In this document: piece after piece, positions 4,542-41,333 of the stretch
How the letters are laid out: each line of letters begins with the position of its first letter
Numbering within the stretch: the stretch's first letter is position 1
Assembly: GCA_964019335.1 (NCBI GenBank)
Contig: OZ025689.1
Span: 310,001 to 374,000, forward strand
Direction: 5' to 3'
From: Diplonema japonicum
Lineage: Eukaryota > Protista > Euglenozoa: Diplonemea
Length of the DNA: 64,000 bases
Notes under the pieces: generated by a model
Told to the model about the DNA's origin: nothing
Seen by the model: only the letters and a program-made list of their open reading frames with translations
Database searches by the model: none
Made by a program: the position numbers and the translations under genes

Positions 4542-4614
4542 CACCTCCCGCGGGGCTCGAACCCGCGACCACAAGGTTAAGGGCCTTGCGCTCTACCGAC
4601 TGAGCTAGGGAGGC
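4542..4614 (-). tRNA. tRNA-Lys(CUU)
   Basis: GCCTCCCTAGCTCAGTCGGTAGAGCGCAAGGCCCTTAACCTTGTGGTCGCGGGTTCGAGCCCCGCGGGAGGTG folds as a cloverleaf with A and B boxes, followed by a T6 Pol III terminator (4536-4541). Confidence 0.92.
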
Positions 4615-4626
4615 TGTGTTTTCTAG
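4600..4626 (-). repeat. 27-bp target-site duplication of E1 (second copy at 11912-11938)
   Basis: ctgagctagggaggctgtgttttctag is identical at 4600-4626 and 11912-11938. Confidence 0.95.
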
Positions 4627-5331: not shown

Positions 5332-8300
5332 TCAGCGCAACACGGGGGCCGCAGGGCCGGCGTCAAGGGAGACAGCCGGCGGGATGAACGAAGGGGCAGC
5401 GGTACCTGCCGTTGCCGCAGACGGCGACGTGAAGACCCCGGATCTGGCCCAGTCAAGCAAGCCAGAGTCGGCGATGAGGGTGAATACCTGCGTCACGCGT
5501 TTTGACAGGCACTCCACCAGCGAGGGGCGTCCATTGGGAGCGTCGAGCGAACCCCGTCCAACCACAGCGCACCCCCCAACAACGTGCTCCCTGGACATCT
5601 TTGCTCCACACGCTGGGCAGCTGAGCTCAGCCTTCTTCCTGTTCGGTCCAGCCGCCTGCAGGAAGCCGAAGAAGAGAGCGGAGTGCCCTACCCTCAGCCG
5701 CGAGATGACCGTCTCCGCTAGCCTGGGGAGGGACTGGGGGAAGCACGCCGCTCGGAGCCCCGTGGCCCTCGCGTATCTCGGGGCCACCTCCCCGACAATG
5801 ACCGCAGACCTCTGCTGAATCTGGCGACGGACCAGGGCCCTGACCGACCTGTAGTCGAGAGAGGGGCGAGTCAGCTCGCGCTTCGTGCCCTCCCCGGCCA
5901 GCCTGTCTGCCGCCTCGTTGCCAGGAACCCCGCAGTGGGACGGCACAAACTGGAGAATGACTGGTGCACCTTGTGCACGTGCCGCGGCCACCAGCAGTTC
6001 CCAGGTCTCGTGGTCGAGCCTCTCCCTCTGCCGCGAAGGACCTGCCCTCAGCTGATCAAGGAGAGAGAGCGAGTCGGTACAGATCGACAGCCGGCTGTCT
6101 GCCAACGTGGGGTGCTCGCTCCGGAGCGCGGCCACCATGTCCAGAGCCACCTTGACAGCCAGACCCTCCGCCCGAAAGGAAGAGCAGAAATTGCTGACGC
6201 CGAAGCTCTCGGACACGGGTTCGTGGGGGCGGGGGAGCTGCAAGTAGACCCCGGCGCCGCCCCTCCACCTCTGGCGGTCCCGTACGACAGAACCATCCGT
6301 ATAGGCATGGATACCCGGTGGAAGGGCAGCCAGAGCCTCCACGGCCGCCTTCCGCTTATCCACGTCCGGCGACGAACGCGTGACCCTGCCGGGAAGGGCA
6401 GTTCTGAACTCCACCAGGAACGCGTGCCACGGTGCTACTTTGGGCGAGGCAGTCAGTAGCTCGAAGGTGTCGTACTTCCTGAAGCCTTCCTGCGTCGTCC
6501 ACCCCTGCAGTCCGCAGCGTCGTAGCGCAAGGATACCCGCACGCAGCCACCCATTGCCCATACCGGTCATCCGCTTCTGCTCAAGGACCTCGCGGTGAAC
6601 CGGGGAGGTCCTCCAGCAGAACGACTTCGCCGTCAACACCGCCGCAGCTCCCTCAGCCATCTGTCGGAGGGGTAGCAGACCTGCCTCAGCAACAACCTTC
6701 GCCGTGCCCGAGCCGTGCCAACAACCCGAGATCAGCACCGCCGCTCTCTGGTGGAGCCCAACAAGCTCCTCCACCCTGCTGTCCCTGAGCCTGGCAAAGT
6801 AAACACCCATGCAGTACCGGAGTAGCGGGAGAACGTACGTGAGGTACAGAGATCGGAGCGTGGCCTTCTTGCACCCCCAGGTCGTGCCCGACAGGAGCCT
6901 TAGTACCCTCAGCCTCTTGTCAGCGCTCCTCAGGACATCCCCCGCATGCTCGTCAAACGTGAGCCCAGAGTCTACAGTGACCCCAAGATACTTCGCCGAC
7001 CCACATAGAGGCAAGGGGCGAGCCGCCATGTAACCAATGTCGGACCTCCGGATGGCGGCGGGGATGTCGAAGGACCGTTTGCCACCCGCCTCCACGACCC
7101 GAAAGCCAGACAGCTCACGGACGCCAGACAAGGTCCCACAGGCCCCAACCCCAAGATTAAGGACAGGGTCCTGGAAGGCCCCCGGGCAAAGCGGGACACG
7201 CGACGAAGAGAAGTAGACATTAAGCCGCTTCTGATAGGGAACGCACACTGCCTGCGACTTGCTGGAGCTCAGCAGCATGCCCCGTCTCCCACACCAGCCC
7301 TCAACCGCGTCCATCACAGCCTGGGCCCCTCGCTCAAGACCAGCCAGGTCGCCCTGCCCGGCTGAGACCACCACCGCAACATCGTCGGCATAAAGAACCG
7401 ACAGGTCCGCCATCCCAACCAGCAACCTGGCTAGCTCGTCGACGTAGATGGTGTAAAGGACGGGTCCCAGCACAGACCCTTGGGGCACCCCTCTCCTCAC
7501 CTTCGTCGTCGACCCTCGCGAACGACCCACCGTGACCGCCGCCGTACGACCGCAGAGGAAGGAGCGCGTCCATTCGACGAAGGGCTCAGGGATCCCTTTC
7601 CTCCGCATCATGCCCAAGAGAGCTTCGTGCTGAACCAGGTCAAACGCAGATGAGAAGTCAAACAGCAGGGCAGCCGACAGACGCCGACTGTCTTTGTTCC
7701 TCGACAGGCACCCGGTCAGGGACGCCACCTGCTCCTCCGTGGAGCGGCCCCTCCTGAAGCCAGCCTGGCTGTCGTGGAGACTCTCAACGCCCGACGCGCT
7801 AGAGTCTAGGAGAAAGGTAAGCCTCTCCTCTATCATCCTCTCAAGCAGCTTACAAAGACAGCTAGTGAGACATATGGGACGGTACGATGCAAGCAACGTG
7901 GCGTCCTTCCCTGCCTTCGCCACTGGAACAATCACCCCCTTCTTCCAGGCACCCGGCACGATCCCCGCCTGCCATGAGCGATTGAGGAGCAGAAGTAGAA
8001 CCCCGAGCGAGGGTTGGTCGAGGTGGAGAAGCATCTCCGCGAAGATGCCATCATCACCCGCTGCACTGCGTGTCTTCATCCTTCCCAGACCGCGGGTGAG
8101 ATCATACACCGTAAAGGCGTGGCACCCAAGCACGTTCGTCGAAGGAGCTACGTCCACCGCGTCCCCATCACCACCCTGGCCGTAGAGCTTGCCGAAGTGA
8201 GCCCCCAGGCGGTCGGCTTTCGCCTTGTCCGTCACGAACCTCCCCTCGAGAATGGGAAGGTGCGGTCTGCGGTGTCTGCCGTCCAGCTTCTTCACCGCCC

Positions 8301-9498
8301 TAAACGCAGACCCGAGGTCCTTGCTCCGACTGAGGTCAGCCGCCATCTCACCCCAGGCCGCGCGCTTCGACTCGGTCATGAGTTGGTTTACCTCCTTGAC
8401 CTTCGCCTTGTAGACCGCCGCCACGCTGTCGTCCTCAGTCTCAGCCGACTTGAGGAAGCGATCCCGCAGGGCGTTCCGTTCTTCGAAGGCGTCTTCGAGT
8501 TCGGCCGTCCACCAGGGGGTCGGGCCTCGTCGCACTCCGCAAAGCGGAATGTGGTCGTCAGCTGCATGCAGAAGAGCCTCTGTAACCTCCTTCGTGAAGG
8601 AGTCAATGTGGGCCTTCGTGTCGATCTTGGTCAGAAGGGCAGCGGCGGCCGCGGTGAAGTCGTCCCACCTGGCCTTTTTGAAGTTCCAGGTAGGGCAGGG
8701 TCGCTCCGAGCAGTAGGCGTCCTCAAGCGGCAGGCGGAAGGAAACCGGGCTGTGATCAGAGCCCCACGTCCCCAACGTCCTCGGCTCCAGTTCCGCACAA
8801 CGTCCCACCACCAGGTCCAGAACGCGTGGCGGTGAGTCCCGCGTCGGCTCGTCTCGGTTGTTGTAGACGGTGTAGCCGTGGGTGTCAAGCCAGTCCCTGA
8901 CCACGTTCCCCCTTTCGTTGGGCGTTGTCACCTTGGCATCCCAAGAGCTGTGGTGTGCGTTGAAGTCGCCAGCAACGATCGTGTTCTTCCCCACAGGTAG
9001 GCTGCCCGGCCGTAGGTACTCGGGGTCCCTTGTTCCTCTGCTTATACTCACAGGCGTGAGGTACACGTTGGAGAGGGTGACCGGGACGCGCTTCACACAG
9101 GAGATCCTCACGTCTAATCGCTCAGTGACACTGTCACCTTCAGGGAGTACGAAAGGAGCTTCCTCCGAGGCAAGGCAGTCACGGACATACGTGATGACAC
9201 CACCGCCTCTCGTCGCAGAGCCGTCCGTCACCGGTGTTGTGCGGTCCCTCCTGTAGGACGTGTATCCAGGCAGGTATGGTGTCTCATGCCCCTCCCTAAG
9301 GTGTGTCTCCTGGATCATAATGATATCCAGCGTCAGTAGGACAGCGTGGTAGGACACGGTTGACCACTTGGCGGCAAGACCGTTGCAGTTCCAGGACAGG
9401 ACCCTGAGTCCCTTCGGCTTCGGGGGTGGGAGCTTCTTAGGTGGACCGGGGTTCGTCTCAACCAGCCCAAGCAGCCCCAGCAGGTCCCTGGCCGACAT
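5332..9498 (-). CDS. E1 ORF2: 2A-like peptide, AP endonuclease, reverse transcriptase, RNase H, C-terminal Cys/His motif (frame open upstream to the UGA at 9640-9642)
   Basis: APE motifs SWNCNG, IQETH, GDFNAH, GSDH. RT motifs YRPICLTS, QAGFR, DFSSAFD, GVPQGSVLGP, YADD, KYLGV. RNase H motifs YTDGS, CTDS, VPSHCGVPGNEAAD. C-terminal CPAC...H. Confidence 0.95.
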   Translation of the reverse strand: MSARDLLGLLGLVETNPGPPKKLPPPKPKGLRVLSWNCNGLAAKWSTVSYHAVLLTLDIIMIQETHLREGHETPYLPGYTSYRRDRTTPVTDGSATRGGGVITYVRDCLASEEAPFVLPEGDSVTERLDVRISCVKRVPVTLSNVYLTPVSISRGTRDPEYLRPGSLPVGKNTIVAGDFNAHHSSWDAKVTTPNERGNVVRDWLDTHGYTVYNNRDEPTRDSPPRVLDLVVGRCAELEPRTLGTWGSDHSPVSFRLPLEDAYCSERPCPTWNFKKARWDDFTAAAAALLTKIDTKAHIDSFTKEVTEALLHAADDHIPLCGVRRGPTPWWTAELEDAFEERNALRDRFLKSAETEDDSVAAVYKAKVKEVNQLMTESKRAAWGEMAADLSRSKDLGSAFRAVKKLDGRHRRPHLPILEGRFVTDKAKADRLGAHFGKLYGQGGDGDAVDVAPSTNVLGCHAFTVYDLTRGLGRMKTRSAAGDDGIFAEMLLHLDQPSLGVLLLLLNRSWQAGIVPGAWKKGVIVPVAKAGKDATLLASYRPICLTSCLCKLLERMIEERLTFLLDSSASGVESLHDSQAGFRRGRSTEEQVASLTGCLSRNKDSRRLSAALLFDFSSAFDLVQHEALLGMMRRKGIPEPFVEWTRSFLCGRTAAVTVGRSRGSTTKVRRGVPQGSVLGPVLYTIYVDELARLLVGMADLSVLYADDVAVVVSAGQGDLAGLERGAQAVMDAVEGWCGRRGMLLSSSKSQAVCVPYQKRLNVYFSSSRVPLCPGAFQDPVLNLGVGACGTLSGVRELSGFRVVEAGGKRSFDIPAAIRRSDIGYMAARPLPLCGSAKYLGVTVDSGLTFDEHAGDVLRSADKRLRVLRLLSGTTWGCKKATLRSLYLTYVLPLLRYCMGVYFARLRDSRVEELVGLHQRAAVLISGCWHGSGTAKVVAEAGLLPLRQMAEGAAAVLTAKSFCWRTSPVHREVLEQKRMTGMGNGWLRAGILALRRCGLQGWTTQEGFRKYDTFELLTASPKVAPWHAFLVEFRTALPGRVTRSSPDVDKRKAAVEALAALPPGIHAYTDGSVVRDRQRWRGGAGVYLQLPRPHEPVSESFGVSNFCSSFRAEGLAVKVALDMVAALRSEHPTLADSRLSICTDSLSLLDQLRAGPSRQRERLDHETWELLVAAARAQGAPVILQFVPSHCGVPGNEAADRLAGEGTKRELTRPSLDYRSVRALVRRQIQQRSAVIVGEVAPRYARATGLRAACFPQSLPRLAETVISRLRVGHSALFFGFLQAAGPNRKKAELSCPACGAKMSREHVVGGCAVVGRGSLDAPNGRPSLVECLSKRVTQVFTLIADSGLLDWARSGVFTSPSAATAGTAAPSFIPPAVSLDAGPAAPVLR

Positions 9499-9639
9499 CC
9501 GTTCAAGTAAGGAAGGGATCAAGGAAGGGAGGACGTCGTACAAGTGATGTGGAAGGTGTCTCCTCGGCTGTATGCGCGGGAGACCAGGAGAGGGGGCGTG
9601 GTCGTCGATCTGACGCCCCCCCTGCTCAGCGGGACCCCT

Positions 9640-11868
9640 TCAATTGGCAGGGGCGGGGGCCGGGCCCACAGAGGCTGCCCGTCCACGGCCGGCCCCGTTG
9701 GGGGAAGCAGAGTCGCCAGCCAGCGACTGGGCGCGTCCCCTTCCGCCCCCTTGCTCCGTCGATGTCGGGTAGGGGCCTGGCGTGCTTACGCCCTGCGCCT
9801 GGTGCCCCTTCGTCCCTGCCTTGGACCCAGCCTTGCCGCCCTTGCCCTTCCCAGCCACTGCCGTCCGCCCAGCTCCGTCTGCAGATGACGCCGGCGCGCC
9901 AAGTGACGCTGCCATCCTCTCCTGGAGGTCGCGGACCGTCGCCTGCAGACCGTCGATGGTCGCCTGCATCGACTGGATCAGCGCGAGGAGCGCCGGGACC
10001 TCTGGTTCCGGTGCGGGATTCTTCTTCTGGGAGTCACGGGGAGGTGTCGTGGTCGGGGAAGCCGCAGAGGAGACCGGAGTCACAGTGCCAAGTGGCGGAG
10101 GGGCAACCGAGCTCGGTGGAGATGACCACGGATTGGTGCTCGGCAGCCCTGTGGACTGCACCGTGGGGCCAGGGGCCGGCGTCGGCGTCTGGGCCGTGGT
10201 TGCCGCAACCGGCGTCCGAGCCGCGGGTGGAGCCTTCTTGTTGGTGCGGGGCGGGAGCGTGACGCTCGGGTGGTCTTCCGCGTCGTGCAGTCGAACGAGA
10301 CGAGAGCCGAAGAGCCATGTCCTGGCCTTGGGGGGCGGGGCGTCGGCGACGATGAAGAACACGAGTTGCCTCGTGCCCTGGAACGCCGTGTCAGAGCGTC
10401 GGATGATGGACGACGGCTTCCAACCGATGTGGTCCATCATCCCGTCGAAGGCTGCCCTGGTAACAGACAGCGGGGCTCCGGTGAGCAGGTACCGACGCTT
10501 TGTCCTCTGCTTGGCGAGGGCCTCCCTCAGACGCTGCTCCGTCTCCGGCAGGCACCTCACGGTCCAACCCTTGCGATGGGCCACCCCCAGGGACAACCCG
10601 CCCAGTGCCTTCGCCAGCTGGAAGGCCTCCGCCCTCCCCTCCGCTACGATGGGCACGTAGGTGTACCCCCCGCGCCGCTCGGTCGTCCTGACCATGCAGC
10701 CGTCGCCCGAGGCCCGGAGTACCGCATGGACGGATGCCGCCGGGAGCCGCAGGCCCACCTCGTGGCTCCAGTGCCGCGCCCGCGGCTCGTTCCCGTCGAT
10801 CTTCTTCGGGCGGAAGATCGCCTGCTCCTCCACCGCCACGCCCTGGGTCGCGACGAGGTCCCGAACCCTGGCCTTCGCCGCGTTCACGCTGTCAGCTTTC
10901 ACGCTGACGTACACTACCTCAGAGCCGCCATCAAAAGAAGCGAGTGGGGTGTAGGAGGGGGGGTTCGACCCGACCGAGAAGGTGTGCACGGCCTTGTGCA
11001 CGACACGCTGGCCGGCGAGTACGATGACGGTGCATGGGGTGGTCGAACCGGCAACCTCCGTCAAGAGGACGAAGGTCAGGGAGGCCGTGGGCCTCGCAGT
11101 GCGAATCGCGTCCACCTGCTGGAGGTCGTCGAGAGCGACGACGGCGCGGGGCACCTCCTCAGGGGGAGCAGTGTTGGTGTAGATGGGGGCGTCCCACGTG
11201 TCGGGGACCAGATCCCAGTGAGGCTCCGGGGCCGGTGCGGGAGCGGGGGCCGTGTCCTTCTCGTCGGTGTCAGAGTCCGACATGGGGAGGGCGGTGTCGC
11301 AGGCAGCGGCAGTGAGGACGGCAGTAGACCACACGGCAGCAGTAGAGGCTGGAGCAGGCGCAGGAGCAGGGGAGTCGGCAGCAGCAGGCGCAGGAGCAGT
11401 GGTGTCGGCAGCAGCAGGTGCAGGAGCAGGGGAGTCGGCAGCAGCAGGTGCAGGAGCAGTGGTGTTGGCAGCAGCAGGTGCAGGAGCAGTGGCAGTGGTG
11501 TCGGCGGCAGCAGTCCTCATCCTCGCCCTCCTGACCTCTGGCGTGTCGACCGTGAACGAGGTGACAACGCCCGGCGACTCGCTAATTAAGACGACAGAGT
11601 CGTCGGAGCCCGAAGCGGCGGCGGTGGCAGCGTCAGCAGCTGCTGCCTTCTGTCTGGCCCTTCTGGCCGCCTTCTTCCCTTGCCCGGGGGAGGGTGTCAC
11701 CACCGGCGTGACCCCCTCTGCGCGCTTCCTCTCCACCTCCTCGCGCGTGCGCTTCGCCCTGGCGGCGGCGTTGTCCTTTACCCGCTCACCGCGGGCTTTC
11801 TCCAGGATTTCTTCCGTCCTGGACTTGTGGTGAGCGGGCCTCTTTTTCTTCTTGTTGGAGGTCGACAT
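9640..11868 (-). CDS. E1 ORF1 (742 aa): basic N-terminus, Ala/Pro repeats, conserved central domain, C-terminal coiled coil
   Basis: ATG lies directly after the (GAAAA)n leader. The core WDLVPDTWDAPIYTN...LHDAEDHP is conserved with ORF1 of E2 and E3. Confidence 0.85.
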   Translation of the reverse strand: MSTSNKKKKRPAHHKSRTEEILEKARGERVKDNAAARAKRTREEVERKRAEGVTPVVTPSPGQGKKAARRARQKAAAADAATAAASGSDDSVVLISESPGVVTSFTVDTPEVRRARMRTAAADTTATAPAPAAANTTAPAPAAADSPAPAPAAADTTAPAPAAADSPAPAPAPASTAAVWSTAVLTAAACDTALPMSDSDTDEKDTAPAPAPAPEPHWDLVPDTWDAPIYTNTAPPEEVPRAVVALDDLQQVDAIRTARPTASLTFVLLTEVAGSTTPCTVIVLAGQRVVHKAVHTFSVGSNPPSYTPLASFDGGSEVVYVSVKADSVNAAKARVRDLVATQGVAVEEQAIFRPKKIDGNEPRARHWSHEVGLRLPAASVHAVLRASGDGCMVRTTERRGGYTYVPIVAEGRAEAFQLAKALGGLSLGVAHRKGWTVRCLPETEQRLREALAKQRTKRRYLLTGAPLSVTRAAFDGMMDHIGWKPSSIIRRSDTAFQGTRQLVFFIVADAPPPKARTWLFGSRLVRLHDAEDHPSVTLPPRTNKKAPPAARTPVAATTAQTPTPAPGPTVQSTGLPSTNPWSSPPSSVAPPPLGTVTPVSSAASPTTTPPRDSQKKNPAPEPEVPALLALIQSMQATIDGLQATVRDLQERMAASLGAPASSADGAGRTAVAGKGKGGKAGSKAGTKGHQAQGVSTPGPYPTSTEQGGGRGRAQSLAGDSASPNGAGRGRAASVGPAPAPAN
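11340..11510 (-). repeat. 30-bp coding tandem repeat (APAPAAAD[T/S][T/P]) in E1 ORF1
   Basis: Repeated gcagcagcagg(c/t)gcaggagcag units; the same repeat occurs in E3 at about 28695-28860. Confidence 0.8.
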
Positions 11869-12374
11869 GATTCTTTTCTTTTCTTTTCTTTTCTTTTCTT
11901 TTCTTTCCTTCCTGAGCTAGGGAGGCTGTGTTTTCTAGTTTTTTTTTTTTTTTTTTTTTCAAAATACCAATGCAGGGCCGCCATGGAGAGCAACACCTGA
12001 GAAAAGGGAAAAAAAAGGTGAAGGGAAACCATGGGGAAATAGGGAGGGCAATGGACCAGGCTTCTGCAAGCAGGAGGAGCCCTGGTCCCCCACCAACCCG
12101 TGCTCTGCTTTGGGACAGCCGAAGAGGGCTGAATTACATTTTTCCCTCAGTCAAGTGAGAGAAAAACGGGGGCCTACCTTCCAGCTGGATGTCCTTCTTT
12201 GGCTGGAACCTCCGGCGGAAAGCCCCCCAGGGAGGTATTGCTCCTATTGAGCGAATCATTGGTGAGTGTGAAAATAAAAAAAAGGGGAAATGGGAAACAG
12301 TGAGAGGAAGGTGAAGGAAGGGAAAGGAAAGTGGAAAACACAACATTTCACTTTACACACACGCGGGCGATCCC

Positions 12375-15300
12375 TTAGCGCAGCACGGGGGCCGCGGGAC
12401 CGGCGTCAAGAGAGACCGGAGGAGGGGGCGGCACGTTTGAAGGTGCAGTGACGTCTGTAGACGCCAGGGATGATGGCGAGGTGAACAGTCCGGAGCGTGA
12501 CCAGGCGAGCAGGCCAGACTCAACAACGAGGTCGTAGATCTGGGTCACGCGTCTCGACAGGGAGAAGGCTAGGGAGGGAGTACCAGCAGGAGTGTCGATC
12601 GCCCCCCTCCCGATCACAGGGCACCCACCGACAACATGCTCCCTGGACATCGGTGCTGCGTGGCAGGCTGGGCACCGGAGCACACCCTTGTGCTTCCTGT
12701 TCGGGCCAGCAGTCTGCAGGAAGCCGAAGAAGAGAGCCGAGTGACCAATCCGCAGCCGCGAGATGACCGTTTCAGCTTGTCTGGGGAAGCCAAGGGGGAA
12801 GTGCGCGGACCGAAGCTCGGTCGCCACCGCGTAGTTGTGGGCGAGGGATGTTATGAGCTCCGCGGACCTCCGCACCACCCACCGTCGCACCAGGGCCCTC
12901 ACTGATCGGTAGTCAAGGGAGGGCCTGTCCTGCTTCCGCTTCGTTCCCTCCCCGGCCAGAGCGTCAGCCTTCTCGTTCCCGTCCACCCCACAGTGGGAGG
13001 GCACAAACTGGAGGACCACCGGTGTCCCCTGCGTGCGCGCCGCGGACACCAGCCGGCTCCACGTCTGGTGGTCGAGCTTCTCCCTCTGTCGCGTTGGGCC
13101 AGCTCGCAGCTGCTCGACGAGGGAGAGGGAGTCGGTGCAGATCGACAGCGGGGACTTCGCCAGCGAAGGGTGTGTTTTTCGGAGGGTAGCCACCATATCC
13201 AGCGCCGTTTTCACAGCCATGCCCTCTGCCCGAAAAGATGAACAGAAGTCGTTGACGCCATGGCACACAGACACAGGGGTCAGGGGGGGAGGCAGCTGCA
13301 GATAAACCCCAGAGCCACCTTTCGCCTTCTGTCCGACCTGTACAACCGAGCCATCCGTGTAGGCATGGATGCCCGGGGGGAGAGCCGCAAGAGCAGCCTC
13401 GGCCGCCTTCCGCCTGTCCGCGTCTGGCGACGATCGCGTGACCCCGCCGGGGAGGTCAGTCCTGAAGTCGACCATGCCTGTCTGCCACGGGGCCGCCAGG
13501 GGCGTAGCCGACAGGTACTCGAAGTGCACCTTTGGTTCCAACCCGCATCGACGCAGTGCTTGGTAGCCAGAGCGCAGCCACCCACACCCCAGCCTGTTCG
13601 CCTGCTTCAGCTTGACCGTCTCCCTGTGAACCGGGGAAGACTGCCAGCAGAAGGCCTTCGCCGTCATCGTCGCCGCAGCACCCTCCGCCATTCTTTCGAG
13701 GGGAAGCAGTCCTGCCTCTGCTAGGAGCTTGTACCCTCCGGAGCCACTCCAGCAGCCCGTGATCAGCACCGCCGCCTCCTGGTGAAGCCCAGCCAGGTCC
13801 TTCCTCCCGACATCATCGAGCCTGCTGTAGTAGACCCCCATGCAGTAGCGCAGCAGCGGGAGGATGTACGTAACGTAGAGAGACCGCAGAGTGTCCCTCT
13901 TGCTGCCCCAGGACGTGCCAGACAAGAGCTTCAGCACCCTCAGCCTTTTGCTGGCCCGCCGTAGGATGTCCTGTGCGTGTTCACCGAACGTGAGCCCAGA
14001 GTCCACCGTAACCCCAAGGTACCTCGCGTGTTCAGACAGAGGCAGGGGACGGGCCGCAACGTAATCCACGTCGGGCCGTCGCACGGCTGCATGCATGTCC
14101 CGCACGCAGCGGATCCGCACACCACCCGCCTCCACAACCTGAAGGCCCGCCAGCTCCTGGTCCCCGGAGATCGTGCCATCGGCGTTCACCCCCAGGCCGA
14201 AGAGTGGGTTCTGGAAGGCACCTGGCTGAAGGGGGACTCGTGACGAAGTGAAGTAGACCCCGAGACGTTTCTGGGGGGGGACGCAGACTGCCTGCGTCTT
14301 GGACGTGCTCAGCAGCATGTCACGCTCCCTGCACCAGTCCTCAACCGCATCCACCACTGCCTGCGCCTTCCGCTCCAGCCCAGCCACGTCCCCTTGTCCA
14401 GAGGAGATCACAACCGCCACGTCGTCGGCGTAGAGCACCGAGACGTCCGCCAGTCCCTCCAGTCTCCTGGCGAGTTCGTCGACGTAGATGGTGTACAGGA
14501 TGGGACCCAAGACAGAGCCCTGGGGGACACCCCGTCGCACCTTCGTCGTCGACCCCCTCGACCGTCCAATCGTGACCGCAGCAGTACGGCCGCATAGAAA
14601 GGACCGCGTCCACTCCACGAAGGGTTCGGGGAGACCCTTCCCTCGCATCTTGTCCAGCAGGGCACCATGGGGCACCAGGTCGAAAGCAGAAGAGAAGTCG
14701 AACAGCAGAGCGGCCGAGAGACGTCGATCGTCTTTGTTCCTCGACATGCACTCAGTGAGGGTTGCCACCTGCTCCTCCGTGGAGCGGCCGCGTCTGAAAC
14801 CAGCCTGGCTGTCGTGGAGTCCCTCGACTCCCGTCCCGTCCGCGTCAAGAAGAAACGTGAGCCTCTCCTCGATCATCCTCTCCAGCAGCTTGCAGAGGCA
14901 GCTGGTCAGGCAGATCGGCCGGTAGGAAGCCAAGAGAGTCGCATCTTTTCCAGGTTTCGGTACCGGGACGATCACTCCCTTCTTCCAGGCACCGGGGACG
15001 ACACCCATCAGCCAGGAGCGATTGAGGAGTAGAAGGAGGACACCGAGGGAGTCCGAGTTCAGGTGTAGGAGCATCTCCGAGAAGATTCCGTCTTCCCCGG
15101 CCGCGCTGCGCGTCTTCATCCTTCTCAGGCCGCGGGTGAGGTCGTCCACGGTGAACGCTTGACACCCGAGTCTGCTTGCAGAAGGAGCGGCGTCCTTCGA
15201 GTTCCCGTCACCACGCCTGCCGTAGAGCTTAGCGAAGTGCGCCCCCAGCCGGTCGGCCTTCGCCTTGTCCGACACAAATCTTCCCTCGAGTACAGGAAGG

Positions 15301-16523
15301 TGTGTCTTTCGGTGCCTGCCGTCCAGCTTCTTCACCGCTCTGAACGCAGCCCCGAGGTCCTTGCTCCGGCTGAGGTCGGCCGCCATCCTTCCCCATGCCT
15401 CACGCTTCGTCTCGTCAAGGAGTCGGTTGACTTCCTTCACCTTCGCCCTGTACTCCTCCACCACGTCCGCCTCTTGAAGCAGGAGTTCGCGCAGGGTGTT
15501 CCGCTCTTCGAAGGCGTCCTCGAGCTCAGCAGTCCACCAGGGGGTCGGGCCACGTCGCATCCCACAGAGGGGAATGTGGTCGTTCGCCGCAGTCAAAAGG
15601 GCTTGTGTAAACCCCTTCGTGACAGAGTCAATCGGAGCCGCCGTGTCAACACCAGCAAGCAGGCGGGCAACAGCAGCAGTGTAGTCATCCCATCTGGCTT
15701 TTTTGAAATTCCAGGTGGGGAAGGGGCGCTCCGAACGGTAGACGTCCTCAAGAGGCAGGTGAAAGGATACGGGACTATGATCGGAGCCCCACGTGCCCAG
15801 CGTCTTCGGCTCAAGCTTCGCGCAGCGCCCCACAACCAGGTCCAGAACGTGTCGTGACGAGTCCCTCGTCGGTTCGTTGCGGTCGTTGTAGACGGTGTAC
15901 CCGTGGGTGTCCAGCCAGTCCCTGACCACGTTCCCCCTCTCGTTCGGCGTCGTCACCGTGGCGTCCCAGGAGCTGTGGTGAGCATTGAAGTCACCCGCTA
16001 TGACTGTGTTCTTCCCCATGGGAAGGCTGCCAGGCCGCAGGTACTCAGGGTCCCTCGTGCCTCTGCCCGCGCTTACCGGTGTAAGGTAAACGTTGGAGAG
16101 AGTGATCGGCTCACGCTTCTCGCAGGAGATCCTCACATCCAGTCTCTCAGTGACACAGTCCCCAGCCGGGAGTACGTGCGGAACCTCCTCCGAGGCAAGA
16201 TCGTCGCGGACATACGTGACAATACCACCACCCCTCGTCGCAGTGCCGTCAGTCACCGGTGTCAACCGATCCCTCCTGTATGACCTGTACCCAGGCAGGT
16301 GTGGCGTGTCGTGCCCTTCCCTCAGGTGCGTCTCCTGTATCATGATGATGTCCAGCGACAAGAAGTCAGCATGGCGAGATACGACGGTCCATTTCGCAAC
16401 GAGGCCGTTGCAGTTCCACGAGACAACCTTGAGACCCTTAGGCGACGGGGGCGGCAGCTTCTTGGGTGGGCCAGGGTTTGTTTCGACCAGCCCAAGCAGC
16501 CCCAGCAGGTCCCTGACGGACAT
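12375..16523 (-). CDS. E2 ORF2: 2A-like peptide, APE, RT, RNase H (1382 aa, intact)
   Basis: Same motifs as E1 ORF2, collinear along its whole length. Confidence 0.95.
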   Translation of the reverse strand: MSVRDLLGLLGLVETNPGPPKKLPPPSPKGLKVVSWNCNGLVAKWTVVSRHADFLSLDIIMIQETHLREGHDTPHLPGYRSYRRDRLTPVTDGTATRGGGIVTYVRDDLASEEVPHVLPAGDCVTERLDVRISCEKREPITLSNVYLTPVSAGRGTRDPEYLRPGSLPMGKNTVIAGDFNAHHSSWDATVTTPNERGNVVRDWLDTHGYTVYNDRNEPTRDSSRHVLDLVVGRCAKLEPKTLGTWGSDHSPVSFHLPLEDVYRSERPFPTWNFKKARWDDYTAAVARLLAGVDTAAPIDSVTKGFTQALLTAANDHIPLCGMRRGPTPWWTAELEDAFEERNTLRELLLQEADVVEEYRAKVKEVNRLLDETKREAWGRMAADLSRSKDLGAAFRAVKKLDGRHRKTHLPVLEGRFVSDKAKADRLGAHFAKLYGRRGDGNSKDAAPSASRLGCQAFTVDDLTRGLRRMKTRSAAGEDGIFSEMLLHLNSDSLGVLLLLLNRSWLMGVVPGAWKKGVIVPVPKPGKDATLLASYRPICLTSCLCKLLERMIEERLTFLLDADGTGVEGLHDSQAGFRRGRSTEEQVATLTECMSRNKDDRRLSAALLFDFSSAFDLVPHGALLDKMRGKGLPEPFVEWTRSFLCGRTAAVTIGRSRGSTTKVRRGVPQGSVLGPILYTIYVDELARRLEGLADVSVLYADDVAVVISSGQGDVAGLERKAQAVVDAVEDWCRERDMLLSTSKTQAVCVPPQKRLGVYFTSSRVPLQPGAFQNPLFGLGVNADGTISGDQELAGLQVVEAGGVRIRCVRDMHAAVRRPDVDYVAARPLPLSEHARYLGVTVDSGLTFGEHAQDILRRASKRLRVLKLLSGTSWGSKRDTLRSLYVTYILPLLRYCMGVYYSRLDDVGRKDLAGLHQEAAVLITGCWSGSGGYKLLAEAGLLPLERMAEGAAATMTAKAFCWQSSPVHRETVKLKQANRLGCGWLRSGYQALRRCGLEPKVHFEYLSATPLAAPWQTGMVDFRTDLPGGVTRSSPDADRRKAAEAALAALPPGIHAYTDGSVVQVGQKAKGGSGVYLQLPPPLTPVSVCHGVNDFCSSFRAEGMAVKTALDMVATLRKTHPSLAKSPLSICTDSLSLVEQLRAGPTRQREKLDHQTWSRLVSAARTQGTPVVLQFVPSHCGVDGNEKADALAGEGTKRKQDRPSLDYRSVRALVRRWVVRRSAELITSLAHNYAVATELRSAHFPLGFPRQAETVISRLRIGHSALFFGFLQTAGPNRKHKGVLRCPACHAAPMSREHVVGGCPVIGRGAIDTPAGTPSLAFSLSRRVTQIYDLVVESGLLAWSRSGLFTSPSSLASTDVTAPSNVPPPPPVSLDAGPAAPVLR

Positions 16524-16664
16524 CCTCCCGAGTAGGGTGGGGATCAGTGCAGAAAAGTCGGTGAAGAAACAGAGAGGTAGGAGTCTCCTGGGGAGGATGC
16601 GAGGGAGACTAGGAGAGGGAGCATGGTCGTAGATCTGCTGCTCCCCCTGTTCTGCGGGGCCCCT

Positions 16665-19520
16665 TCAATTGGATGGACCCATGGAGGCAGAGCGCCCCTT
16701 GACCCCATTGGTGAAGAGATCTTTGGTCTCCGCGAACGACCTGGCCCGCCCCCTCGTACCCAGGTTCGTCACCGCAGCCTCAGAGGTCGTAGCGAGAGGA
16801 GGAGCCCCCTTCTTCCCCTTCCCCTTCCCTTTCCAGACACTGTCGTGTGTCGTCGTCGCCCCCGGTGTAGGGTCCCGCGGCACTGCCGTTCCCGTCGTCA
16901 GCGTGGCCGCCTGCGGCAGGAGGAGGCGGAGCGTCGTCCGCAGATCGGAGATCATCTCCTGCTGAGAGTCGATCGTCCTCTGCAGCCCGACGATCGACTC
17001 CTTCAGCGTGGCGACGAGCTCAGTGAGAGCGGCGACCTCAGGCGACCCGGAAGGGACTCCCTCCTTGTTTCCCGCAGACACGTTGCGGGGCGGTGTAGGG
17101 GACGTCACAGTGTCGAGCTGGGGGGGAGCCACCGAGCTCGGTATGGACGCCCACGGGCTGGTGGGAGGAAGCCCAGTTGCTTTCACCGCAGGGCCAGTCT
17201 CCGAGGGTGTCGACGCCGATACAGGTGCCGGGTCAGGTACAGGTGTAGTAGGCGCAGGTGCAGGTACATGAGAAGATGTGGGTGCCGGGGTCGAGGACGT
17301 TGCAAGCGCAGGTGCAGATGCAGGTGTCGTCCTGTTGATGAGAGGGGGCGGCTTGACGGTCGGGTGGTCGTCCGCATCACGGAGACAGACAAGGCGCCCC
17401 CCAAGGAGCCACGTCCTGGACTTCGGGGGCGGGCTGTCGACGACGATGAAGAACACGAGTTGCCTCGTGCCCTGGAACATCGTCTGCGTGCGTCGCAGGA
17501 CGGAGGATGGTTTCCAACCGATGTGGTCCATCACTTCGTCGAAGGCCGCCCTGGTGATGGACGGCGGGGCCCCGGTGAGCAAAAACTTGCGCTTCGTACG
17601 CAGTTTTGCGAGGGTTTCCCGGAGCCGCTGTTCCGTCTCCGGTAGGCACCGCACAGTCCATCCCTTACGGTGCGCCACCCCGAGAGACAACCCACCCAGC
17701 GTCCCCGCAATCCGAAAGGCATCCGCCCTCCCTTCCGCCACGATGGGTACATAAGCGTACCCCCCGCGTCTCTCCGTCGTCCGCATTAAGCACCCGTCCC
17801 CGGACCGGCGCAGGACGGCGTGGACGTGTGCTGCTTGCAGGCGCAGTCCCACCTCGTGGGTCCAGTGCCTCGCCCGCGGTTCCTCCTCACCGAACTTCCT
17901 TGGGCGGAAGACCGCACGATCCTCCATCACCGCGCCCTGAGCCTTGGCGAGCTCCAGGACCCTGGCCTTCGCCTCCTTCAGGCTGTCTGCACTGACACAG
18001 ACGTAGACGACCTCCGATCCGCTGTTGAAGGTGGAAGGCGGGGTGTAGGTGGGGGGGTCCAGCCCGAACGTGGAGACGTGGACCCTCCTGTTCACTGCGC
18101 GCGACCCAGAGACCATGACAATCTCGCTGGGGGTGGTGACACCGGGGACCTCTGTCATAAGGACAAAGGTGATGGATGCCGTAGGTAACGCGGAGCACAC
18201 GACCCCCATTCCGGAGGGATCGTCGAGCGCAATGACAGCGCGGGATGTTTCCGTCGGGGGGGACACGTTGGTGTAGATCGGGGCGTCCCATGTGTCTGGC
18301 ACCAGGTCCCATCGCGGGGTTGTGGAAGGGGCAGGGGCAGGGTCGTCCTCCATCTCCTCAGGGCCAGAGCTGGTGTCAGAGTCTGAGCTGAGGAGGAGCG
18401 TGCCTTGGTCTGTTGACGCGTTGGCGGAAGCGTTCGCGACTGCTTCGTCCTCGACCTTCTGGGCATCTGCCTTCTTGGCGGCCGCCAACCTCAAAGCTTC
18501 CTCCTTTTTGGCAGCGGCTGCGGCGGCTTCCTTTTCGGCGGCGGCGGTGGCTGCGACCTTCTTCTTCTCCTCGGCGGCGGCGGCTGCGGCTGCGGTCTCC
18601 TTCTCGGCGGCGGCGGCTGCAGCTTGCTTCCTGGCGGCGTCGGCTGCGGCCTTCCTCTCGGCGGCGGCGGCGGCAGCGGCTTTCTTCTCGGCGGCGGCCT
18701 TCTCCTCGGCGGCGGCGGCGGCTGCTGCTTTCTTCTCGGCGGCGGCGGCGGCTGCGGCTTTCTTCTTCTCGGCTGCAGCGGCTGCGGCTGTAGCCTTCTT
18801 CTCCTCGGCTGCTTTCATCTCGGCCGCAGCACGCGCAGCCTCCTTCTCCTCTGCCGCAAGTCGTGCAGTAGACCGCTCGCGCAGAGCCTTCTCCTCAGCC
18901 TCGACTGCTCTGCGAGCAGCCTCCACACCAGCCACGCGTGCAGCTTCCGTCTCGGCTGCCATTTTGACAACAGCAGCATCAGCCACCTCCTGCGCAGCCT
19001 TCATCTAAGCAGCTATTTCTGCAGCTACCACGTCGGCCGACTCGCGTGCAGCTTCCAAATCAGCAGCGATTCCCGCGAGTTCGACGTCGGCCGCAGTGCG
19101 TGCGGCTTCGAGGGGGTGTGTGGCGTCAGCTATGTGTGCGGCTTCGGCGGCAGCGTCAGCGCGCGCGGCTCTGGCGGCCTTCCTCCTAGCTTTTTTGCTG
19201 GAGGTCGGGGTGGCGACGCTGGCGTCAGGCGAAACCGGCCTTTTGACGGAGCCGGTCGGGGTGGAGGCGACAGGTGTCGCTGGGCCGGCTGTAGCGGCGG
19301 CGGCGTCGGGCGTGAGGAGGTCAATTACGGTGACCACCCCCGTCATCTTCTCCCGGTGCTCCGGCGTCAGGAGCTGCCCCAGCTCCCCGGCTGCTCCAGC
19401 GCTGCGGAGCATCCTCTCCACCCGCCGCTCCTCCCTGGCCTTGGACTGGGCCAGCTGCGTGCTGGCCCCGTTCCCTTCCGGCTTTGCCTTCTCCTTGTGC
19501 TTGTCTTTCTTCTTGCCCAT
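16665..19520 (-). CDS. E2 ORF1, interrupted by one in-frame TAG at 19005-19007; long (A5EKK)-like helical expansion
   Basis: ORFs 19005-19520 and 16665-19004 are contiguous and in frame. The core is homologous to E1 ORF1. Confidence 0.8.
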
Positions 19521-19964
19521 TTTTCTTTTCTTTTCTTTTCTTTTCTTTTCTTTTCTTTTCTTTTCTTTTCTTTTCTTTCGTGTTTTCTAGAAGCCGTGAA
19601 AAACGTTAGTGTTGTTTTCGATTCTAATGATAACCCGGTGTCATACCTTGTATGTACAAAATAAATGCAGCCACACCTGCCCCTGCATTGACAAGACCTG
19701 AAAGGGACACCAAGAATGTCAGCAATTTGTCGATTTTTTTCATTTTCCCTTTTCTTCCCCCCCACCTCCTATTTCCGTCCTCGTCGGTGCGAGTGGCGAA
19801 GAGAACGGGACAGCGAAAGGGATGAGCACGGAGACTCCACCACAACAGAAAAGCGAAAGAGAAAAGAATACGAGAAATTGAAAAGCCCAACCACAACCCC
19901 TCACCATTATCCCCGCGTTCTTTTAAAAAAAAAATGTTTGACTACTTTTCCATGTTGACCAAGG

Positions 19965-27373: not shown

Positions 27374-28311
27374 TTTAGTGCTCGACCTCTAATCTGAAGA
27401 GAAATTAATATTTGCTAAAAGGAAAAAAAAGCCAAGTCAAACATTGGATATAAAAAAAGGGGGGGCAGGGATGTGGGAAAGAAATAAAATAAAAAACATC
27501 TTTGTGTTTATTCACTTAAAAAAAGGAGGGGGGGGGATTCATTTTATAAAAAGGAAACCACCTTTGTGACCCATTGCCATTTTCTAAAAGGCTAGGGCTC
27601 GGGAAGGAAAAAAAGGGAGGTCCTCTTTTTTTGCTGTTCTATTACTTAACTTTTAATTTGGTGGTGCTCGGGGTAAGAGGAGGAAGAGATATTTTTCTAG
27701 TTCACGGCCATTCTAAGCAAAGTGTCAATAATTGCATCATTTTTCAGGATGTTCGCTTGTGTCGTGTGGATCTTGTTCAGCTGCGTGTGTGTTTTTTTTT
27801 TTTTTTTTTCAATTTAAAAAAATGAGATAAGAACAGCAGGTGCTGCCAGGATGTTTAAATCTTTACCGAGCCGCGCCGCAGCTGGGTCAAGCTGTCGCCA
27901 GAAGATCGAATGCGTTGAAGGAGGCTTTGCTCAGGTTTTGAGGCTTTGTTCGTATTTGACAAACCCTTCACCAGCGTTGGTGCAGGATGCGTTGCGGACC
28001 GCTTTCGTGGATCCACGACAGAAAAGTGGAAACGGTGGGCCTACAGTAAGGCTCGAGGCCAGCTTTTTAAGTCTCGAAAATGAGAGGCTTTTGTACAAAG
28101 ACCAAGAAGATGCTGCAAAGCTGGGTGGAGAACAAAAAATCCACGGTAATCAAAGACTTGAGAGACAGGGTCGCATGTCGAAGGATAAGCATGGAGGAAC
28201 TGAAGCATGCGCTGAGGCAACTGAAGAAAAGGAAATCCAACAATGGTATCCAAACTTTTCATGTATCACATCTCTCCGACATTTCTAGATTATCATTGCC
28301 CAGATCTGGCA

Positions 28312-31300
28312 AAGGAAAGAAAAGAAAGAAAAGAAAAGAAACATGACGACCACCAACAAGAAGAAAAAGAGGCCCGCTCACCACAAGTCCAGGACGGAAG
28401 AAATCCTGGAGAAAGCCCGCGGTGAGCGGGTAAAGGACAACGCCGCCGCCAGGGCGAAGCGCACGAGGAGGTGGAGAGGAAGCGCGCAGAGGGGGTCACG
28501 CCGGTGGTGACACCCCCCCCGGGCAAGGGAAGAAGGCGGCCAGAAGGGCCAGACAGAAGGCAGCAGCTGCTGACGCTGCCACCGCCGCCGCTTCGGGCTC
28601 CGACGACTCTGTCGTCTTAATTAGCGAGTCGCCGGGCGTTGTCACCTCGTTCACGGTCGACACGCCAGAGGTCAGGAGGGCGAGGATGAGGACTGCTGCC
28701 GCCGACACCACTGCTCCTGCACCTGCTGCTGCCAACACCACTGCTCCTGCACCTGCTGCTGCCGACACCACTGCTCCTGCACCTGCTGCTGCCGACTCCC
28801 CTGCCCCTGCACCTGCTGCTGCCGACACCACTGCTCCTGCGCCTGCTCCAGCTACTGCTGCCGTGTGGTCTACTGCCGTCCTCACTGCCGCTGCCTGCGA
28901 CACCGCCCTCCCCATGTCGGACTCTGACACCGACGAGAAGAACACGGCCCCCGCTCCCGCACCGGCCCCGGAGCCTCACTGGGATCTGGTCCCCGACACG
29001 TGGGACGCCCCCATCTACACCAACACTGCTCCCCCTGAGGAGGTGCCCCGCGCCGTCGTCGCTCTCGACGACCTCCAGCAGGTGGACGCGATTCGCACTG
29101 CGAGGCCCACGGCCTCCCTGACCTTCGTCCTCTTGACGGAGGTTGCCGGTTCGACCACCCCATGCACCGTCATCGTACTCGCCGGCCAGCGTGTCGTGCA
29201 CAAGGCCGTGCACACCTTCTCGGTCGGGTCGAACCCCCCCTCCTACACCCCACTCGCTTCTTTTGATGGCGGCTCTGAGGTAGTGTACGTCAGCGTGAAA
29301 GCTGACAGCGTGAACGCGGCGAAGGCCAGGGTTCGGGACCTCGTCGCGACCCAGGGCGTGGCGGTGGAGGAGCAGGCGATCTTCCGCCCGAAGAAGATCG
29401 ACGGGAACGAGCCGCGGGCGCGGCACTGGAGCCACGAGGTGGGACTGCGGCTCCCGGCGGCATCCGTCCATGCGGTACTCCGGGCCTCGGGCGACGGCTG
29501 CATGGTCAGGACGACCGAGCGGCGCGGGGGGTACACCTACGTGCCCATCGTAGCGGAGGGGAGGGCGGAGGCCTTCCAGCTGGCGAAGGCACTGGGCGGG
29601 TTGTCCCTGGGGGTGGCCCATCGCAAGGGTTGGACCGTGAGGTGCCTGCCGGAGACGGAGCAGCGTCTGAGGGAGGCCCTCGCCAAGCAGAGGACAAAGC
29701 GTCGGTACCTGCTCACCGGAGCCCCGCTGTCTGTTACCAGGGCAGCCTTCGACGGGATGATGGACCACATCGGTTGGAAGCCGTCGTCCATCATCCGACG
29801 CTCTGACACGGCGTTCCAGGGCACGAGGCAACTCGTGTTCTTCATCGTCGCCGACGCCCCGCCCCCCAAGGCCAGGACATGGCTCTTCGGCTCTCGTCTC
29901 GTTCGACTGCACGACGCGGAAGACCACCCGAGCGTCACGCTCCCGCCCCGCACCAACAAGAAGGCTCCACCCGCGGCTCGGACACCGGTTGCGGCAACCA
30001 CGGCCCAGACGCCGACGCCGGCCCCTGGCCCCACGGTGCAGTCCACAGGGCTGCCGAGCACCAATCCGTGGTCATCTCCACCGAGCTCGGTTGCCCCTCC
30101 GCCACTTGGCACTGTGACTCCGGTCTCCTCTGCGGCTTCCCCGACCACGACACCTCCCCGTGACTCCCAGAAGAAGAATCCCGCACCGGAACCTGAGGTC
30201 CCGGCGCTCCTCGCGCTGATCCAGTCGATGCAGGCGACCATCGACGGTCTGCAGGCGACGGTCCGCGACCTCCAGGAGAAGATGGCAGCGTCACTTGGCG
30301 CGCCGGCGCCATCTGCAGACGGTGCTGGGCGGACGGCAGTTGCTGGGAAGGGCAAAGGCGGCAAGGCTGGGTCCAAGGCAGGGACGAAGGGGCACCAGGC
30401 GCAGGGCGTAAGCACGCCAGGCCCCTACCCGACATCGACGGAGCAAGGGGGCGGAAGGGGACGCGCCCAGTCGCTGGCTGGCGACTCTGCTACCCCCAAC
30501 GGGGTCGGCGTGGACGGGCAGCCTCTGTGGGCCCGGCCCCCGCCCCTGCCAATTGAGGTCCCGCTGAGCAGGGGGGGCGGCAGATCGACGACCACGCCCC
30601 CTCTCCTGGTCTCCCGCGCATACAGCCGAGGAGACACCTTCCACATCACTTGTACGACGTCCTCCCTTCCTTGATCCCTTCCTTACTTGAACGGATGTCG
30701 GCCAGGGACCTGCTGGGGCTGCTTGGGCTGGTTGAGACGAACCCCGGTCCACCTAAGAAGCTCCCACCCCCGAAGCCGAAGGGACTCAGGGTCCTGTCCT
30801 GGAACTGCAACGGTCTTGCCGCCAAGTGGTCAACCGTGTCCTACCACGCTGGATATCATTATGATCCAGGAGACACACCTTAGGGAGGGGCATGAGACAC
30901 CATACCTGCCTGGATACACGTCCTACAGGAGGGACCGCACAACACCGGTGACGGACGGCTCTGCGACGAGAGGCGGTGGTGTCATCACGTATGTCCGTGA
31001 CTGCCTTGCCTCGGAGGAAGCTCCTTTCGTACTCCCTGAAGGTGACAGTGTCACTGAGCGATTAGACGTGAGGATCTCCTGTGTGAAGCGCGTCCCGGTC
31101 ACCCTCTCCAACGTGTACCTCACGCCTGTGAGTATAAGCAGAGGAACAAGGGACCCCGAGTGCCTACGGCCGGGCAGCCTACCTGCGGGGAAGAACACGA
31201 TCGTTGCTGGCGACTTCAACGCATACCACAGCTCTTGGGATGCCAAGGTGACAACGCCCAACGAAAGGGGGAACGTGGTCAGGGACTGGCTTGACACCCA

Positions 31301-34300: not shown

Positions 34301-34705
34301 ACTCGCCCCTCTCTCGACTACAGGTCGGTCAGGGCCCTGGTCCGTCGCCAGATTCAGCAGAGGTCTGCGGTCATTGTCGGGGAGGTGGCCCCGAGATACG
34401 CGAGGGCCACGGGGCTCCGAGCGGCGTGCTTCCCCCAGTCCCTCCCCAGGCTAGCGGAGACGGTCATCTCGCGGCTGAGGGTAGGGCACTCCGCTCTCTT
34501 CTTCGGCTTCCTGCAGGCGGCTGGACCGAACAGGAAGAAGGCTGAGCTCAGCTGCCCAGCGTGTGGAGCAAAGATGTCCAGGGAGCACGTTGTTGGGGGG
34601 TGCGCTGTGGTTGGACGGGGTTCGCTCGACGCTCCCAATGGACGCCCCTCGCTGGTGGAGTGCCTGTCAAAACGCGTGACGCAGGTATTCACCCTTATCG
34701 CCGAC
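28312..34705 (+). mobile_element. E3: near-identical copy of E1 (family A), frameshifted and lacking the family-A 3' end
   Basis: Preceded by TSD agatctggca (28302-28311) and an A/G-rich leader; ATG at 28343. ORF1 and ORF2 are nearly identical to E1 with small deletions. Homology stops at ...FTLIAD (34705). Confidence 0.92.
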
Positions 34706-36067: not shown

Positions 36068-36077
36068 AGATCTGGCA

Positions 36078-39113: not shown

Positions 39114-39120
39114 AGATCTG

Positions 39121-41134: not shown

Positions 41135-41206
41135 TCCTCGGTAGTATAGAGGTCAGTATATCCGCCTGTCACGCGGATGACCCGGGTTCAATTCCCGGCC
41201 GGGGAA
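41135..41206 (+). tRNA. tRNA-Asp(GUC), the targeted copy
   Basis: TCCTCGGTAGTATAGAGGTCAGTATATCCGCCTGTCACGCGGATGACCCGGGTTCAATTCCCGGCCGGGGAA folds as a cloverleaf; a T-run lies downstream. Confidence 0.92.
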
Positions 41207-41261
41207 TTCTTTTTGCCAAGTAGATACAAAATACGCCCGGGTTTATTAAGTCAAAAAAGAA

Positions 41262-41333
41262 TTCCCCGGCCGGGAATTGAACCCGGGTCATCCGCGTGAC
41301 AGGCGGATATACTGACCTCTATACTACCGAGGA
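41262..41333 (-). tRNA. tRNA-Asp(GUC), identical inverted copy with an unoccupied upstream flank
   Basis: Exact reverse complement of 41135-41206, with its own T-run terminator. Confidence 0.92.

Follow-up and report, generated by a model that had tools for sequence, protein, structure and literature searches.

A 64,000-nucleotide stretch of Diplonema japonicum contig OZ025689.1 (assembly GCA_964019335.1, positions 310,001 to 374,000 of the forward strand), which we refer to as the window, raises the question of how a non-LTR retrotransposon with two reading frames makes the enzyme that its second frame encodes. Translation of ORF2 in two-ORF non-LTR elements is described as an open question in the available part of PMC3894237, and the known answers given there are of the reinitiation type. 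At the junction analyzed here we observed an in-frame UGA, a downstream spacer that evolves in the manner of coding sequence, a hairpin common to two elements with two compensatory base pairs, and, conserved in both elements, a 2A-derived motif whose position 12 (p12) is Leu in place of Asp. The first-pass annotation had read this junction as readthrough followed by StopGo: its proposal of 2A ancestry is borne out by the match to F2A, by canonical cores at the same site in relatives and by a tree, and readthrough, which it had assumed, gains sequence support from the coding-type evolution of the spacer and the compensated hairpin, but it had missed the conserved Met at p1 of the motif and the rival possibility of an AUG start.

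On its minus strand the window contains a tandem of two full elements, designated E1 and E2 and ~74% identical in DNA, and on its plus strand a decayed E1-type copy, E3 (Table 1). Each has the layout ORF1, in-frame TGA, 47 open codons, Met, the motif, APE, RT and RNase H (Pfam), and the APE and RT domains, poly(A) end and target-site duplication place them among the APE-type non-LTR retrotransposons. Three motif copies had been taken as witnesses in the earlier annotation, of which E1 and E2 stand; E3 is broken and 98% identical to E1 in DNA, so there are two independent copies and not three, and the informative comparison, on which all sequence tests described below rest, is the one pair E1 versus E2. 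In that comparison ORF1 is under constraint (dN/dS 0.25 in its core), and RRM-family matches of the core in the ESM Atlas, all <0.8, are a lead only. No protease domain was found in the element by Pfam. ORF1 of E2 in the window has a TAG at codon 172 (19005-19007, minus strand) where the transcript protein has Lys, which implies that the window copy is mutated or was misread; D. japonicum transcript proteins in EukProt match E2 at 948 of 951 residues of ORF1 and 1380 of 1382 of ORF2, and both matches fall under one Trinity gene id. Among the matches listed, which weaker ORF1 matches would not have reached, the only relative of ORF1 was a D. japonicum protein, and there was no fused ORF1-ORF2 protein among the 150 listed of 4228 matches. 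A metagenome scan returned four loci of 24-27% identity, in all of which a 2A ahead of the APE was absent. A non-standard genetic code was considered and rejected, with TGA ending five of the nine long host frames checked and TGG used in seven of the nine. Two further features of the elements were noted: a 38-nt run in the ORF1 core (10347-10384, minus strand) that is identical in E1 and E2, the longest in the element and possibly an RNA signal or the result of gene conversion, and (AAAGA)n repeats directly 5' of both ORF1 starts (11869-11911 and 19521-19579, minus strand), with hardly any other 5' UTR, which look like the A-rich leaders of host genes.

Table 1. Positions in the window of the elements, their junction features and the insertion site.
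Feature	Position	Strand	Remarks
E1 element	~11911-4627	-	full copy
E1 ORF1, 742 aa	9640..11868	-	no Pfam family above cut-off; weak RRM-like lead
E1 ORF1 stop TGA, context AAT-TGA-AGG-GGT	9640..9642	-	in frame with ORF2; unchanged in public contigs
E1 47-codon spacer	9499..9639	-	evolves as protein in ORF1/ORF2 frame
E1 predicted 10-bp hairpin, +17 to +51 after TGA	9589..9623	-	two compensatory changes vs E2
E1 candidate long-range helix, 9636-9630 with 9479-9473 (2A codons L7-L9)	9473..9636	-	weakly supported
E1 2A-like peptide MSARDLLGLLGLVETNPG/P (slash, predicted skip site), Leu at p12	9442..9498	-	predicted skip site between 9445 and 9444
E1 ORF2 after predicted skip site	5332..9444	-	Pfam; catalytic motifs present
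E1 ORF2 domains	APE 9399-8752; RT 7893-7207; RNase H 6309-5884	-	Pfam
E2 element	~19579-11939	-	full copy
E2 ORF1, 951 codons	16665..19520	-	
E2 TGA (16667-16665), 47-codon spacer and hairpin (16648-16614)	16524..16667	-	
E2 2A-like peptide MSVRDLLGLLGLVETNPG/P	16467..16523	-	
E2 ORF2 (APE-RT-RNase H)	12375..16469	-	
E3 element	28311-34705	+	decayed E1-type copy, 10 deletions, one directly 3' of TGA
E3 2A-like peptide	30695..30751	+	inside decayed copy
Insertion site: tRNA-Lys(CTT) 4614-4542; duplication right copy 4626-4600, left copy 11938-11912	4542..4626	-	

The motif, MS(A/V)RDLLGLLGLVETNPG/P, stands ahead of the APE of this APE-RT-RNase H element and can be written as the 19-mer MS(A/V)RDLLGLLGLVETNPGP, of which RDLLGLLGLVETNPGP is the same in E1, E2 and E3, as first annotated, with the annotated spans running exactly from Met (p1) to Pro (p19). 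In a six-frame scan of the window, NPGP occurred only at 9453 (-), 16478 (-) and 30740 (+), and the chance expectation of Gx(V/I)ExNPGP over the six frames is 3e-4. The Pfam APE match begins 15 residues past the last Pro of the motif, close to the ~13 residues annotated, and the predicted skip site lies 195 nt from the TGA, in keeping with the earlier estimate of two sites within about 200 nt. Public-run contigs across the junction of E1 (X1, 9200-10000, which may come from the window's own source, and X11, 9200-9937) and of E2 (X4, 16200-16974) had 0 differences from the window; thus neither the TGA nor the Leu that had been reported in place of Asp is an assembly error. Between E1 and E2, all 15 residues of p5-p19 are identical, with five synonymous and no other changes at dS ~0.9, a conservation reached by only 5% of 15-aa windows in ORF2 and amounting to amino-acid-level constraint in one sequence pair. 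The Pro-Lys linker behind the motif is conserved on a par with it (11 of 12 between E1 and E2), so the conservation of the motif need not signify skipping. Against the strict core (D/G/C/N)(V/I)ExNPGP, LVETNPGP fits at seven of eight positions, the exception being Leu at p12, and the Gly at p11 and the Leu-rich hydrophobic stretch at p6-p10 of 2A peptides are both present (LLGLLG, with L6, L7, L9 and G11 in F2A register). The LLG-LLG-LV codons (9469-9492, minus strand) form a 9-nt near-tandem repeat, in which slippage could have given rise to the Leu at p12. A minor contig of run X8 (9583-9651) has a 6-nt in-frame deletion in a hairpin arm and unlike sequence joined 10 nt before the TGA, and is probably a 5'-truncated copy.

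Judged by its residues and relatives, the motif is a 2A by descent, in a derived form. By eye, 11 of the 15 residues at p5-p19 (D5, L6, L7, L9, G11, V13, E14, N16, P17, G18 and P19) are those of F2A as printed in bioRxiv 2026.09.24.754024, and R4 and T15 are tolerated changes according to the available part of that preprint. An NPGP-type motif is printed in 47 of 163 related proteins and a (V/I)E core in 36; many others are predictions truncated at the N-terminus, for which lack of a motif does not count as absence. At p12 of the 36 cores there are 31 D, two N, two G and a single L, which belongs to the E2-type transcript; relatives thus carry homologous, canonical 2As at the corresponding site. 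We placed E1 and E2 in a quick IQ-TREE tree (SH-aLRT only) of 46 APE-RT rows, taken as the 44 best of 112 full-length matches, minus P0001, plus E1 and E2, and including no named ingi or L1Tc protein. E1 and E2 had as their sister group two D. ambulator elements whose cores are of the GDVH type (support 99), and a D. japonicum element with GDVEQNPGP adjoined this group (support 81). The core of the sister clade is GDVH(P/R/K)(N/H)PGP; since these elements keep Asp at p12, Leu12 would, by parsimony, be a derived change older than the split between E1 and E2. All sister motifs have His at p14, and within the first 125 residues of one D. ambulator protein (P0212) there are three NPGP/HPGP motifs and the start of the APE occurs twice.

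Ribosomes probably read through the UGA of ORF1, to judge by the evolution of the 47 codons behind it. E1 and E2 differ in the spacer by 21 synonymous and 20 nonsynonymous changes, giving a dN/dS of 0.21 in the ORF frame, whereas the two other sense frames give 1.33 and 1.42; for comparison, ORF2 as a whole has a value of 0.19 and the final 60 ORF1 codons one of 0.56. Synonymous codon changes numbered 15 where 6.4 were expected (permutation P 0.0005), and the excess held on the 39 spacer codons outside the hairpin arms (P 0.0008). Constraint was strongest in codons 1-26 (dN/dS 0.16). There were no gaps in the 141 nt of the spacer with its 41 substitutions, compared with nine gaps in 170 nt with 26 substitutions in the common 3' UTR block. 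As such, an in-frame stop is followed by coding constraint. The TGA is a fixed feature of both subfamilies, which are separated by a dS of ~0.9, and lies within 13 nt that are identical in E1 and E2. Its context, UGA-AGG, fits none of the readthrough types I-III tabulated in PMC3542737 (UGA-C, UAG-CAR-YYA and UAG-G) and resembles UGA-AGA and UGA-AGU, which the available part of PMC13517186 lists as readthrough contexts for epsilon-like retroviruses. The similar-looking gag-UGA-pol junction of Tca2 directed no readthrough in yeast, according to the part of PMC2194720 at hand.

The predicted hairpin lies within the spacer, and its compensatory changes are two G-C/A-U pairs. Among 39 helices of at least 7 bp common to E1 and E2 across 4872 aligned nt, it is the longest and the only one with two compensatory pairs. 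Its inner seven pairs have a predicted pair probability of 0.84-0.99 in both copies, and its folding z-scores are modest (-1.7 and -2.2, with -0.8 and -0.3 for the whole 113 nt). Both changes in the 5' arm alter amino acids, from which it follows that pairing was kept at a cost to the protein. There is, then, a conserved 3' RNA structure with covariation, in two sequences and with the stem 17 nt past the stop, compared with spacers of 7-9 nt between stop and structure in the available part of PMC3159437. The candidate long-range helix that would pair the start of the spacer with 2A codons had a high predicted probability when folding began at +1, which was gone when the first 8 nt were withheld, and it showed no compensatory change between E1 and E2. 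An Rfam scan of 9300-12400 gave seven matches, all under the gathering score and none to an HDV family, and a home-made descriptor of the HDV-like fold (Pr77 type), applied without a positive control, gave no matches at the junction or the 5' end.

Given readthrough, the sequence evidence leaves useful skipping by the Leu12 motif evenly balanced, and the published evidence, as far as the available parts of the sources go, points both ways. In the F2A structure Asp12 hydrogen-bonds to rRNA, and D12A abolishes F2A activity (PMC12846837). Every D12 substitution in P2A or F2A stayed below 0.6, and p8 of F2A tolerates only I, A, M and Q, whereas the element's motif has Gly there; a high activity score was reached by only 43 among 580 2As from retroelements and by only 139 among 1969 2As with a single deviation (bioRxiv 2026.09.24.754024). 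The natural p12 variants C, N, V and T were 88% to >95% active in their native context, and Leu is not among the p12 residues flagged or assayed in the accessible portion of PMC12846837. Leu12 variants do occur in viruses in the dataset of that paper, sheet A of which has nine L(V/I)ExNPGP rows among 2465, in six contigs, with four in one contig. An Asp-to-Gln 2A is active in the sea-urchin element STR-32_SP, and degenerate, inactive 2As persist in Nematostella elements (PMC3708506). Leu-rich eukaryotic 2A-like peptides often reduce protein output (bioRxiv 2026.06.17.732966), and the motif contains four Leu in p1-p10. Searches for GLVE, LVETNPG and Diplonema gave no matches in four supplements of PMC12338488.

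In the mechanism that we propose, most ribosomes would end at the ORF1 TGA and yield abundant ORF1p, and a minority would read through the UGA, likely helped by the predicted hairpin 17 nt downstream, add 47 codons and then meet the 2A-derived peptide. Where the Gly-Pro bond is skipped, the products would be a rare ORF1p extended by 66 residues ending in NPG and an equally conjectural, rare free ORF2p starting PPKKLP; where it is not, a full ORF1-ORF2 fusion (~2180 aa for E1) would result, and partial skipping would give fusion and free ORF2p together. That readthrough and useful skipping both occur is, on the sequences, possible if somewhat doubtful. The most complete version is a tentative one that, taken as a whole, we rate as rather unlikely: two serial recoding steps within 195 nt, in which hairpin-stimulated UGA readthrough sets the ORF1:ORF2 ratio, Leu12 StopGo replaces a protease, the 2A codons double as an arm of RNA structure, and the leftover fusion guides insertion upstream of tRNA genes.

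All of the readthrough evidence (spacer, hairpin and starts) applies equally if the Leu12 motif no longer skips and the enzyme is an ORF1-ORF2 fusion like retroviral Gag-Pol, which we regard as an unlikely but substantial alternative. It gains from the D12 intolerance of P2A and F2A (PMC12846837; bioRxiv 2026.09.24.754024) and from the lowered output of Leu-rich 2A-like peptides (bioRxiv 2026.06.17.732966), to which the Leu content of the motif is relevant. Extra domains directly ahead of the APE are common among relatives, so an N-terminal fusion may be tolerated. The motif would then have been retained for RNA pairing, as a linker, or as a helix that causes pausing or lowers output. Codons R4-L12, which show no synonymous change, can pair with +4 to +10 after the TGA; however, their nucleotide invariance is not significant element-wide (P 0.47), and ETNPGP has been kept through five synonymous changes where a dead 2A would be expected to drift.

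An ORF2 that starts at its own AUG, the Met at p1, by reinitiation or from a separate mRNA with a trans-spliced leader, is improbable in our assessment. The 2A-like peptide would in that case form a leader of 18 residues at the N-terminus, an arrangement known from other non-LTR elements with a 2A. This Met is conserved in E1 and E2, and Met is also found at p5 in three motifs of the D. ambulator sisters and in a further D. japonicum element; both spacers have, at about +70 to +77, pyrimidine-rich stretches and a CAG that are possible trans-splice acceptors, with no AUG between these and the motif Met. In D. papillatum practically every mRNA is trans-spliced (PMC10161547), and SART1 and L1 use reinitiation (PMC5972666), according to the available parts of these papers. 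However, such a start leaves the coding-type evolution and frame keeping of the spacer unexplained, above all in its first 26 codons, and E2 has an out-of-frame AUG at +40. A-rich leaders were present at the starts of all six host genes and both ORF1s checked and at neither of the two motif Met codons; the codon before the Met is CGG or AGG, with Arg kept while the -3 base changes. Contigs of seven runs, whose kind is unrecorded and which have no bearing on splicing, held no spacer joints or leader-like loose ends. A coded spacer would be accounted for equally well if the stop were removed or redefined in RNA, whether by cis-splicing to an AG past the TGA, UGA-to-UGG editing or selenocysteine, with spacer and 2A translated thereafter, and an AG does directly follow the TGA in both copies. 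Such a process is very improbable: ORF1 as derived from transcripts terminates at the same position, the ORF2 so derived is called complete with the Met as its first residue, a second search contained no fused ORF1-ORF2 protein among matches spanning 763-2429 aa, and a simple SECIS pattern was unmatched in either 3' UTR. Least credible, and to our mind scarcely to be entertained, is that ORF1, 2A and ORF2 once formed a single fused frame and that the junction is its remnant, with neither recoding step still working. A recent stop spread by gene conversion, of which the 13 identical nt around it could be the trace, would leave a coding signature, but the fixation of the TGA at that synonymous distance, the intact ORF2, the poly(A) and target-site duplications of both copies and the compensated hairpin adjoining the stop all speak against it.

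Retroviral and alphaviral readthrough systems free the enzyme by means of a protease; in the element studied here, which differs in having no protease domain by Pfam and a hairpin further from the stop, release would fall to the 2A-like peptide. The likeness to gammaretroviral and epsilonretroviral gag-stop-pol and to the alphavirus UGA with its 3' stem lies in an in-frame stop, a purine-rich 3' context and 3' RNA structure, and in these systems, as would be the case here, readthrough sets the ratio of structural protein to enzyme (available parts of PMC3159437, PMC13517186 and PMC3542737). With FMDV F2A and the class A, Leu-rich motif groups (PMC12846837, in part), the element shares the in-register identity at p5-p19 and differs in Leu for Asp at p12 and Gly at p8. 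A 2A ahead of the APE is already well known, and the annotated precedent of L1Tc and other non-LTR elements is established in the literature, in the available parts of PMC3708506 and PMC3894237. The Trypanosoma elements L1Tc and ingi are alike in having a 2A-like motif just ahead of the APE, an APE-RT-RNase H ORF and a euglenozoan host, but elements of the ingi clade lack an ORF1 and their cores are of the DIEQ(N/H)PGP type (same sources), whereas the present element has a constrained ORF1 of 742-951 aa, followed by an in-frame TGA and a coded spacer, and has Leu at p12. Since it has neither the strict 2A core nor the single ORF of ingi, we take the element to work like these systems without being a member of them. 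A few elements combine ORF1 and a 2A: ORF1, 2A and ORF2 come together in CR1-26_BF, CR1-53_BF and CR1-1_LG (PMC3708506, PMC3894237) and in Cordylochernes ORF1-2A-ORF2 proteins, where the 2A lies between the ORF1p and ORF2p domains (bioRxiv 2026.06.17.732966), whereas a readthrough stop with a structured, coded spacer is not described for them in the available parts of these sources. In a literature search that was thin on subscription papers, we found no report of readthrough leading into a 2A between ORF1 and ORF2 of a non-LTR element. The compact arrangement of stop, hairpin and 2A-like junction makes LINE-like readthrough directly testable in a 250-nt reporter. Activity of the Leu12 peptide would broaden the StopGo core at the very residue that, in the structure of F2A, is hydrogen-bonded to rRNA; inactivity would mean that the element makes a Gag-Pol-like fusion, unusual for its class.

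E1 and E2 each carry a poly(A) end and a target-site duplication, and the two share a single, stacked insertion site 11 nt upstream of the tRNA-Lys(CTT) gene. The duplication of E1 is 27 nt long and copies the first 15 nt of the tRNA, and that of E2 is 11 nt (19580-19590, minus strand). The stacked insertions suggest tRNA-gene targeting, and the dictyostelid elements TRE5 and NLTR-A likewise insert just upstream of a tRNA gene, with the difference that only one target locus was seen for the present element; in the available part of the same paper, TRE5-A ORF1p binds TFIIIB and ORF1p is implicated in targeting (PMC5006619). By analogy, we speculate that an ORF1-ORF2 fusion may have a targeting role.

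Elsewhere, other non-LTR families are represented by fragments at 36056-38500 and 39018-40268 (plus strand) that lack an APE and a 2A within the window, with identities to E1 ORF2 of 32% for RT-RNase H and 28% for RNase H. Two tRNA-Asp(GTC) genes in inverted orientation were found at 41135-41333. A cofactor-independent phosphoglycerate mutase, at whose N-terminus there is a weak RIIa-like match below the cut-off, is encoded at 44421-46535 (minus strand), and malate synthase G at 55824-58190.
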